In this document: positions 12,736 to 13,570 of the stretch, in pieces
Numbering within the stretch: position 1 is the stretch's first letter
Layout of the letters: every line of letters starts with the position of its first letter
IMG/VR virus record: IMGVR_UViG_2563366840_000007
Location: 1-19,454 of that record
DNA length: 19,454 nt
Reading direction: 5' to 3' (one strand)
Source of the DNA: a virus
Lineage: Duplodnaviria > Heunggongvirae > Uroviricota > Caudoviricetes
Made by a program: the position numbers and the translations under genes
The notes under the pieces: model-generated
What the model saw: the letters and a program-made list of their open reading frames with translations, nothing else
What the model was told of the DNA's origin: nothing
Database searches by the model: none

Positions 12736-13509
12736 TCAAAAATTAGGTGAGTAACGGACCGGGGACATAGCTCCTTTTTTTCTTAATTCATCTGGTATTT
12801 TTTTTCCAAGATAAAGATTTGCTATTTCAGGTGGGGCTTCTCGACCTTCAAAACCATAGCGAGAACTTTGTGTTGCCTCAAAGTCCGGATCCTCGTCCCA
12901 GTATTTCATCGTAGGGAAATTTTCACGTGTTGATTTGAGCCATTTATCAGCAATGAAAACCCCTCGAACGATCCCCCTTACAGTAGCAAGAATGACTTCT
13001 GCTTGGCTGGCGCGAGAGACATTAATGCGCCAGCTAAATCGAACCGCATCATAAAGCTCTGAATCCTTTGCACTTCTGTTAACGGAAATCATTAATGCTT
13101 TATGATGAAATGTTATGGTTTCGGGTTGATATGTTGCTATCAACTCTTTGACATGCGCGGCGCCGAATTCATTGCTGCCAGCACCATTCATGATATTCGT
13201 TAACCCAGGGTAGGCATCAATAAGTGCTGCTTCAACTTCGTACGCCGTCTTTTCATCAGTCATTCCGTGTCGATGGATGACATGGATAACCTCAAGTCCT
13301 GCTAACCTTATTTCTCTAATTTGCTTTAGCTTGTTGCTCAGTAACTCGTCATCATCAGTCGCTGCCACTTCACCGCGCATATGGGCAAATACGCGGTTAC
13401 CTTTGCCTTTCCCTACATAGAAGGTGCTTCCGTCCCTCGGATCAATCAATCGGTATACATACCAGCCAAGGTGTTCAATTACTCCAGAAGGAAACTCAGT
13501 AATATCCAT
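12736..13509 (-). CDS. GIY-YIG-domain nuclease with a C-terminal domain of unknown function (~150 aa)
   Basis: N-terminal region carries the GIY-YIG pattern (W-YVYRL ... [10 protein letters not shown] ... conserved R, E, N); start chosen at ATG 13509 (MDITEF...) rather than track start 13560 because a sigma70-like promoter is predicted between them; convergent with the invertase gene. Confidence 0.7.
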
Positions 13510-13541
13510 TTTGCAATATCTATGAATTATTTGTGAGACGT

Positions 13542-13570
13542 ATATTAATGAACATTGCAAGGGCTCACAA
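13542..13570 (-). promoter_or_regulatory. Putative sigma70 promoter for the GIY-YIG gene
   Basis: On the - strand: TTGTGA, 17-bp spacer, TAATAT, about 30 bp upstream of ATG 13509. Pattern match only. Confidence 0.25.

Follow-up and report, generated by a model that had tools for sequence, protein, structure and literature searches.

What does an e14-like prophage carry at its end, in the place where e14 itself carries the modification-dependent nuclease gene mcrA? This question is raised by a stretch of 19,454 nucleotides of viral DNA (IMG/VR record IMGVR_UViG_2563366840_000007, Caudoviricetes; the whole stretch is referred to as the window), in which an uninterrupted open reading frame at 12736..13560 (minus strand) lies between a DNA invertase gene, pin, and an att remnant. 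A first-pass annotation made from the letters alone had described its product as an uncharacterised GIY-YIG nuclease and as the best candidate in the window for an undescribed system. The protein is, however, a copy of PD-T4-3 (Vassallo et al. 2022, PMC9519451), which was renamed CMoRE by Liu et al. (2026, PMC12923530), and there is very little doubt that it constitutes a prophage-borne, direct and non-abortive type IV nuclease against T-even-type phages. The defence gene is hence already known, its discovery dating from 2022 and its mechanism and structure from 2025–2026, and it is annotated by current defence-finder tools, PADLOC and DefenseFinder both including PD-T4-3 models. The remaining part of the early proposal, namely a single-gene defence determinant in which a nuclease is fused to a modified-base reader, corresponds well to what has been published for a 98.4%-identical protein (PMC12923530).

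The identity of the window gene, its domain layout, its named functional residues and its genomic context are direct observations. The PADLOC model for PD-T4-3 (PDLC04031) covers the full length of the protein (E=2.4e-140; residues 1–256 on profile positions 1–255/256), as does PHROG 5356, a family of unknown function. In a sequence search of the PDB the entries 9U75/9U8D (E=3.7e-172) and 9U7U/9U7Z (E=1.1e-150), all named ‘GIY-YIG domain-containing protein’, were matched from end to end. A scripted comparison gave 253 identities over 257 residues (98.4%) with CMoRE of E. coli O157:H7 (9U75/9U8D) and 85.2% identity over all 257 residues with CMoRE of APEC O1 (9U7U/9U7Z). Both crystallized proteins share with the window protein the two-domain layout, the GIYxY-YIG motif, the acidic loop, the interface residues and Y127, and nothing in its sequence speaks against the assignment. 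A scan against NCBIfam, which contains no model for PD-T4-3/CMoRE, returned no family. Like CMoRE/PD-T4-3 elsewhere, the gene forms a single-gene system inside a prophage, as it is bordered by pin, which converges with it, and by a tRNA-Ser att remnant, and the genes farther out vary between genomes.

Two start codons are available in the reading frame, a TTG yielding 274 residues and an ATG at 13509 yielding 257, which is the length range given at first reading. The RefSeq limits of the coding sequence in genomes with 100% identical DNA are exactly 12736..13509 (WP_000355484.1, ‘LEM-3-like GIY-YIG domain-containing protein’), the alignment with the crystallized homologues begins at residue 1 of the 257-residue form, and the published residue numbers (Y17, Y19, Y31, R80, V92, L96, Y127) match this start only. 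Since RefSeq limits, crystal constructs and published numbering agree on the ATG, the real product is almost certainly the 257-residue form, and the 17 codons upstream are probably untranslated and part of the 5′ leader or promoter region. Copies with 100% nucleotide identity to the open reading frame occur in numerous genomes of diverse host origin. As 839 of 5426 complete E. coli genomes (~15%) contain the gene at ≥95% nucleotide identity, its reality is far beyond chance. Its GC content of 0.44 versus 0.56 in the tail genes represents a cargo signature.

The N-terminal part of the protein matches Pfam PF22945 (LEM-3_GIY-YIG) at residues 28–110 (E=2.1e-14), in agreement with the GIY-YIG module recognised originally, whereas the C-terminal ~150 residues, which had been declared unassignable, are indeed matched neither by Pfam nor by NCBIfam. 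The catalytic signature reads GWYVY...FYVG and places the three tyrosines of the ‘GIYxY-YIG’ motif defined for CMoRE (PMC12923530) at Y17, Y19 and Y31. Every residue named in that study occurs in the window protein at the published position, and Y17, Y19, Y31, R39, H43, D52-D53-D54-E55, R80, V92, E93, L96, N105 and Y127 are all present. The C-terminal half shares 98% identity with the sequence of the ligand-bound structure and has kept Y127, by which the domain is predicted to act as the sensor contacting 5-hydroxymethylcytosine (5hmC). An EVE/PUA/SRA-like or winged-helix fold, as suggested beforehand for this domain, did not hold up, because Liu et al. detected no homologue by sequence or structure; the geometry of 5hmC binding parallels that of the flipped base in the SRA domain of UHRF2 (PMC12923530).

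Conservation was assessed by aligning the window protein with a second E. coli allele and with full-length homologues that a tblastn search of phage genomes had yielded, i.e. in jumbo phages of Serratia, Pantoea, Pseudomonas and Klebsiella (38–45% identity) and in Escherichia phage PhiR41_1 (~30%). Invariant residues include Y17, V18, Y19, F30, Y31, G33, K34, G35, R39, H43, E93, T104 and N105 in the N-terminal domain and N144, W160, G179, W190, R217 and R252 in the C-terminal one. The catalytic residues are thus retained down to ~30% identity, and the loss that would have spoken against a functional nuclease was not found. From general knowledge of GIY-YIG enzymes we take R39 and E93 to be the catalytic arginine and glutamate and N105 to be the metal-site asparagine; the text of PMC12923530 states conservation of the catalytic residues, giving no numbers for them. 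In this small alignment only the E. coli sequences have four consecutive acidic residues, a run that the jumbo-phage homologues lack, in agreement with the published statement that most but not all CMoRE members carry the acidic loop (PMC12923530).

Activity, specificity, structure and defence phenotype have been shown by others for CMoRE of O157:H7 and of APEC O1 (98% and 85% identical), the published evidence including crystal structures, biochemistry, active-site mutants and the deletion phenotype in a native host. PD-T4-3 emerged from a functional selection (PMC9519451); in the main text of that paper, where the string ‘PD-T4-3’ is absent, the system appears as ‘a GIY-YIG nuclease’ and in figures, and Liu et al. 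credit its authors with the origin from E. coli ECOR68 and with the direct, non-abortive mode of defence (PMC12923530). CMoRE protects ~10^5-fold against T2, T4 and T6, T4(hmC) being sensitive and T4(C) resistant, and protection persists at a multiplicity of infection >1 with growth arrest being absent (PMC12923530). In vitro, it binds and cleaves DNA with 5hmC or glucosyl-hydroxymethylcytosine (5ghmC) but neither cytosine nor 5-methylcytosine (5mC) DNA, uses Mg2+ or Mn2+, requires two modified sites and cuts in the pattern CN11/N9G with 2-nt 3′ overhangs (PMC12923530). The enzyme is a tetramer assembled from head-to-tail dimers, active-site mutants have lost function, and the authors report that there is no allosteric activation. 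Exchange of the acidic α2–α3 loop in the 4A mutant of the O157:H7 protein resulted in cleavage of ordinary DNA and in toxicity (PMC12923530). A 48%-identical homologue from Capnocytophaga was examined by Rodriguez-Rodriguez et al. (2025, PMC12366544). It acts against T4 and spares the unmodified T4-GT7, and in vitro only modified T4 DNA is degraded by it. Its predicted active-site residues are required, and its cleavage of Mu DNA is weak. In the clinical E. coli isolate NILS69, deletion of the native gene conferred sensitivity to two of ten infecting phages (LF73_P1 and LF73_P3), and the same PD-T4-3 gene on a plasmid in K-12 protected against four phages, all of them Tevenvirinae.

We infer that the window allele acts likewise and is expressed from its own promoter. 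On the basis of its near-identity to characterised CMoRE, the following scenario is proposed. The C-terminal domain would bind 5hmC or 5ghmC of incoming DNA, and recognition by the tetramer, a dimer of head-to-tail dimers, would require two modified cytosines ~21 bp apart (site CN11/N9G). The acidic loop D52–E55 is expected to cover the active site and to repel ordinary or 5mC-containing DNA, by which the host chromosome would be spared, and tightly bound modified DNA would out-compete the loop. The N-terminal GIY-YIG domain would then cut both strands with Mg2+ or Mn2+, leaving 2-nt 3′ overhangs. As an outcome, genomes of T-even-type phages would be destroyed directly in a non-abortive manner, and lysogen and prophage would both be protected.

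Several caveats apply to the transfer of this assignment to the window allele. The latter differs from the O157:H7 crystal protein by T51A, E55D, Q169K and N197H, and two of the four substitutions reside within or beside the acidic loop; yet CMoRE of APEC O1 also has DDDE there, and all four exchanges are conservative; a functional change is not expected. The steps assigned to the acidic loop and to dimer recognition correspond to the model of Liu et al., no DNA-bound structure being available (PMC12923530). Moreover, the APEC O1 homologue conferred weak defence from its native promoter (PMC12923530), and a promoter scan upstream of the window gene detected no minus-strand site and no consensus sigma-70 promoter.

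Among the alternatives, the one that survives best concerns the range of bases that are read. The window allele might recognise wider or other modifications than 5hmC and 5ghmC, such as the Mu-type N6-carbamoylmethyl-adenine or arabinosyl-hmC, and its natural targets would then extend beyond T-even phages. Such a range would be compatible with the behaviour of the Capnocytophaga homologue, which at high enzyme concentration also degrades Mu DNA and, once induced, confers protection against Mu (PMC12366544), and with the way in which 5hmC is bound, at an edge instead of inside a pocket, a mode considered by the authors to suit both 5hmC and 5ghmC (PMC12923530); the latter paper also cites Mahler et al. 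2025, a work that according to its title deals with arabinosyl-hydroxy-cytosine modifications and defence systems. However, the 98%-identical O157:H7 enzyme showed specificity for T-even DNA within the set of phage DNAs tested and leaves 5mC and unmodified DNA unbound (PMC12923530), only Tevenvirinae phages were affected in NILS69 and K-12, one Mosigvirus remaining unaffected, and the ligand contact Y127 is untouched by all four substitutions. We consider a broader specificity unlikely.

A further objection is that the gene, albeit intact, might be expressed below a protective level in the degraded context of tandem islands. The lacking consensus promoter and the weak APEC O1 clone would fit such a situation, as would the observation that one phage escaped the native NILS69 copy, yet not the plasmid copy. 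Conversely, the native NILS69 copy is active, clones of the O157:H7 and Klebsiella genes with their native promoters protect ~10^5-fold (PMC12923530), and the intact reading frame together with its 100% nucleotide-identical copies in many genomes is consistent with purifying selection. A silenced gene is accordingly regarded as improbable. Finally, a free-standing homing endonuclease of the I-TevI/Seg type, spreading itself by site-specific cutting of related prophages that lack the gene, is rejected as extremely improbable, since a marginal, partial match to the PHROG ‘homing endonuclease’ phrog_314 (E=0.0021, residues 17–149) and the unverified depositors’ label ‘putative homing nuclease’ on jumbo-phage homologues are opposed by a full-length match to PD-T4-3/CMoRE and to no homing enzyme, by a 5hmC-binding C-terminal domain unrelated to the DNA-binding modules of I-TevI type and matched by neither Pfam nor NCBIfam, and by published CMoRE biochemistry that largely refutes it, as reads are depleted across the whole T4 genome with no strict sequence requirement and unmodified DNA stays uncut (PMC12923530).

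As a type IV nuclease against T-even-type phages, CMoRE can be compared with two groups of known enzymes. With respect to the GIY-YIG superfamily, represented by the N-terminal domain of UvrC, LEM-3/ANKLE1 (PF22945) and I-TevI-type enzymes, it is distinguished by the extra tyrosine Y19, by a 15-residue acidic α2–α3 insert and by another C-terminal partner domain, and its role is not repair, Holliday-junction processing or homing. With GmrSD/BrxU, PvuRts1I/AbaSI and McrBC it shares the strategy of reading phage hmC/ghmC to restrict cytosine-replacing phages, a likeness drawn from their descriptions. Members of the PvuRts1I family cut at a fixed distance (~11–13/9–10 nt) between two modified cytosines and leave 2-nt 3′ overhangs, which closely resembles CN11/N9G. 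Unlike CMoRE, they have a PD-(D/E)XK nuclease fold and an SRA-like reader, and GmrSD contains DUF262/HNH modules. The reader domain of CMoRE has no detectable homologue (PMC12923530).

Table 1. Features of the CMoRE locus in the window and domains of the encoded protein.
Feature	Position	Strand	Evidence
pin, pinE-type serine invertase, conserved left border of the cargo slot	12121..12675	+	Open reading frame; pinE annotation in matching genomes
Spacer between the convergent stops of pin and CMoRE, 60 bp, with stem-loop	12676..12735	.	RNA fold
CMoRE / PD-T4-3 coding sequence, 257 residues plus stop	12736..13509	-	Open reading frame, PADLOC, PHROG 5356, identity to PDB 9U75, RefSeq coding sequence
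Codons of D52-D53-D54-E55, acidic α2–α3 lid	13345..13356	-	Sequence ...AATDDDELL...
GIYxY-YIG nuclease domain, followed by a flexible linker	residues 1 to ~115
Predicted 5hmC/5ghmC-sensing domain, holding the published ligand contact Y127	residues ~125 to 257
Additional 17 codons in frame upstream, beginning at the TTG	13510..13560	-	Open-reading-frame finder listing
AT-rich leader, from att remnant to start codon	13561..13683	-
3′ part of a tRNA-Ser (serU-type) gene and chromosomal flank, right border of the cargo slot	13684..13790	+	BLAST

The surroundings of the CMoRE gene (Table 1) are those of an e14-like prophage. The left 12 kb of the window constitute its contractile-tail/baseplate module of the Mu type, with tail sheath, tube, tape measure, ‘DNA circularization’ protein, baseplate J and YmfQ. 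Two 20-nt inverted repeats (10177–10196 and 12040–12059; 95% complementary, 1843 nt apart) flank an alternative tail-fibre C-terminus and tail-fibre-assembly genes (10657–11268 on the plus strand, 11240–11680 and 11702–12094 on the minus strand) and are likely the Pin crossover sites of an invertible host-range segment. The pin gene itself stands outside the defence system. Its start is ATG 12121 in RefSeq and in K-12 pinE (MLIGYVRVS...); the open-reading-frame finder lengthens it by 12 codons (12085–12120) to ATG 12085, overlapping the region of the right inverted repeat.

The arrangement described early on, a gene convergent to the invertase between the tail-fibre switch and the att region, is borne out, the stop codons of pin and CMoRE lying 60 bp apart. 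The intervening DNA folds on the minus strand (12660–12745) with -20 kcal/mol (z=-2.7), and this stem-loop, which has no T-run, may serve as a two-way terminator, as inferred from the fold only; a terminator scan around the gene called no intrinsic terminator. The leader on the other side presumably holds the promoter of the CMoRE gene. Beyond it, starting ~175 bp upstream of the CMoRE start, the DNA matches, at 98% identity, the tRNA-Ser locus present in most E. coli genomes and is the att-site duplicate at the end of the e14-like prophage. Because this duplicate lies just beyond it, CMoRE is the terminal cargo gene of the prophage. ARAGORN detected no complete tRNA in the region upstream of CMoRE, and an Rfam hit to a plastid psbI-rps4 3′UTR motif, well below the gathering score and overlapping the tRNA-Ser fragment, was discarded as most likely spurious. 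The DNA past the att duplicate is unrelated island DNA, which suggests tandem integrations at a single tRNA-Ser site. According to the annotation of the matching genome MLI104K1, the segment from ~16000 to 19454 belongs to a CP4-type island; its genes, all on the minus strand, encode a ykfI/yeeU-family type IV toxin-antitoxin, DUF987, a JAB/RadC-like and an antirestriction protein, ykfF, ykfB, a YfjS/YafY lipoprotein and ypjK.

The comparison with e14 that had been drawn from gene position alone proved correct. In K-12 e14 the order is ymfQ-stfP-tfaP-tfaE-stfE′-pinE-mcrA-attR; the window is near-identical to it through pin, and nucleotide homology ends at the pin stop codon. McrA (EcoKMcrA) is likewise a single-gene type IV modification-dependent nuclease positioned immediately after pinE and before an att site. 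Its nuclease domain is of the HNH type, its N-terminal domain reads 5mC/5hmC, and it is not known to restrict glucosylated T4 DNA. Despite the analogous function, sequence similarity between McrA and CMoRE is absent (BLASTP against K-12 McrA, E=2.4), and the orientations differ, mcrA pointing in the same direction as pinE and CMoRE being convergent with the invertase gene. Membership of the window protein in the McrA family was also rejected on these grounds, an HNH family being absent among its Pfam hits. Two unrelated type IV nucleases, McrA and CMoRE, are consequently found in the same slot. In a sample of eight further pin loci plus K-12 e14, pin is directly followed by mcrA in K-12 and EC05, by three hypothetical genes next to ssrA in NWU_4 and by tail genes of a P2-type phage in 65COLEC. 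We tentatively envisage, as a possibility short of an even chance, that the position after pin is a dedicated exchange point for unrelated type IV nucleases and defence cargo, McrA in icd-integrated and CMoRE in tRNA-Ser-associated copies, and that jumbo phages perhaps use loop-less CMoRE homologues against co-infecting hmC phages. A literature search linking PD-T4-3 to the e14 pinE/mcrA slot retrieved no paper with both and was dominated by unrelated matches to ‘pine’ and ‘E14’.

In E. coli S1-KEN-04-A (locus 3016–4310) an intact CMoRE gene, whose protein has the same accession as in the window, is still attached to a remnant of pin that is frameshifted and truncated at its N-terminus. The pair sits behind a long lambdoid-type tail-fibre gene and its assembly gene, which suggests a transfer of the pin-CMoRE junction as one unit from one prophage background to another. 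Beyond CMoRE, E. coli NT1F10 (locus 15178–23160) carries a Dcm-type methyltransferase, a type II restriction endonuclease and an ‘ABC-three component system’, and APEC37 (locus 3891–5439) an ‘ATP-dependent nuclease’; judged from these neighbours, the prophage end acts as a small defence island. Full-length CMoRE homologues (38–45% identity) are also encoded by five virulent jumbo phages of 250–285 kb, among them Serratia phage Moabite (locus 2501–3265), Pseudomonas phage OBP and Klebsiella phage N1M2. They have kept the catalytic residues and are labelled ‘homing nuclease’ or ‘hypothetical’ by the depositors, and in four of the five phages a gene annotated as DNA-binding protein or regulator follows directly. 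These homologues may serve phage-versus-phage competition. If the ideas on the exchange slot and on the jumbo phages are true, the identity of the window gene remains unaffected.

The nature of the gene could be inferred from raw sequence and position alone, an invertase-adjacent nuclease at a prophage end being a modification-dependent anti-phage enzyme. Hidden behind a vague RefSeq name and a missing NCBIfam model, this under-annotated type IV restriction enzyme is present in ~15% of complete E. coli genomes, which matters for the prediction of host ranges in phage therapy with T-even phages.
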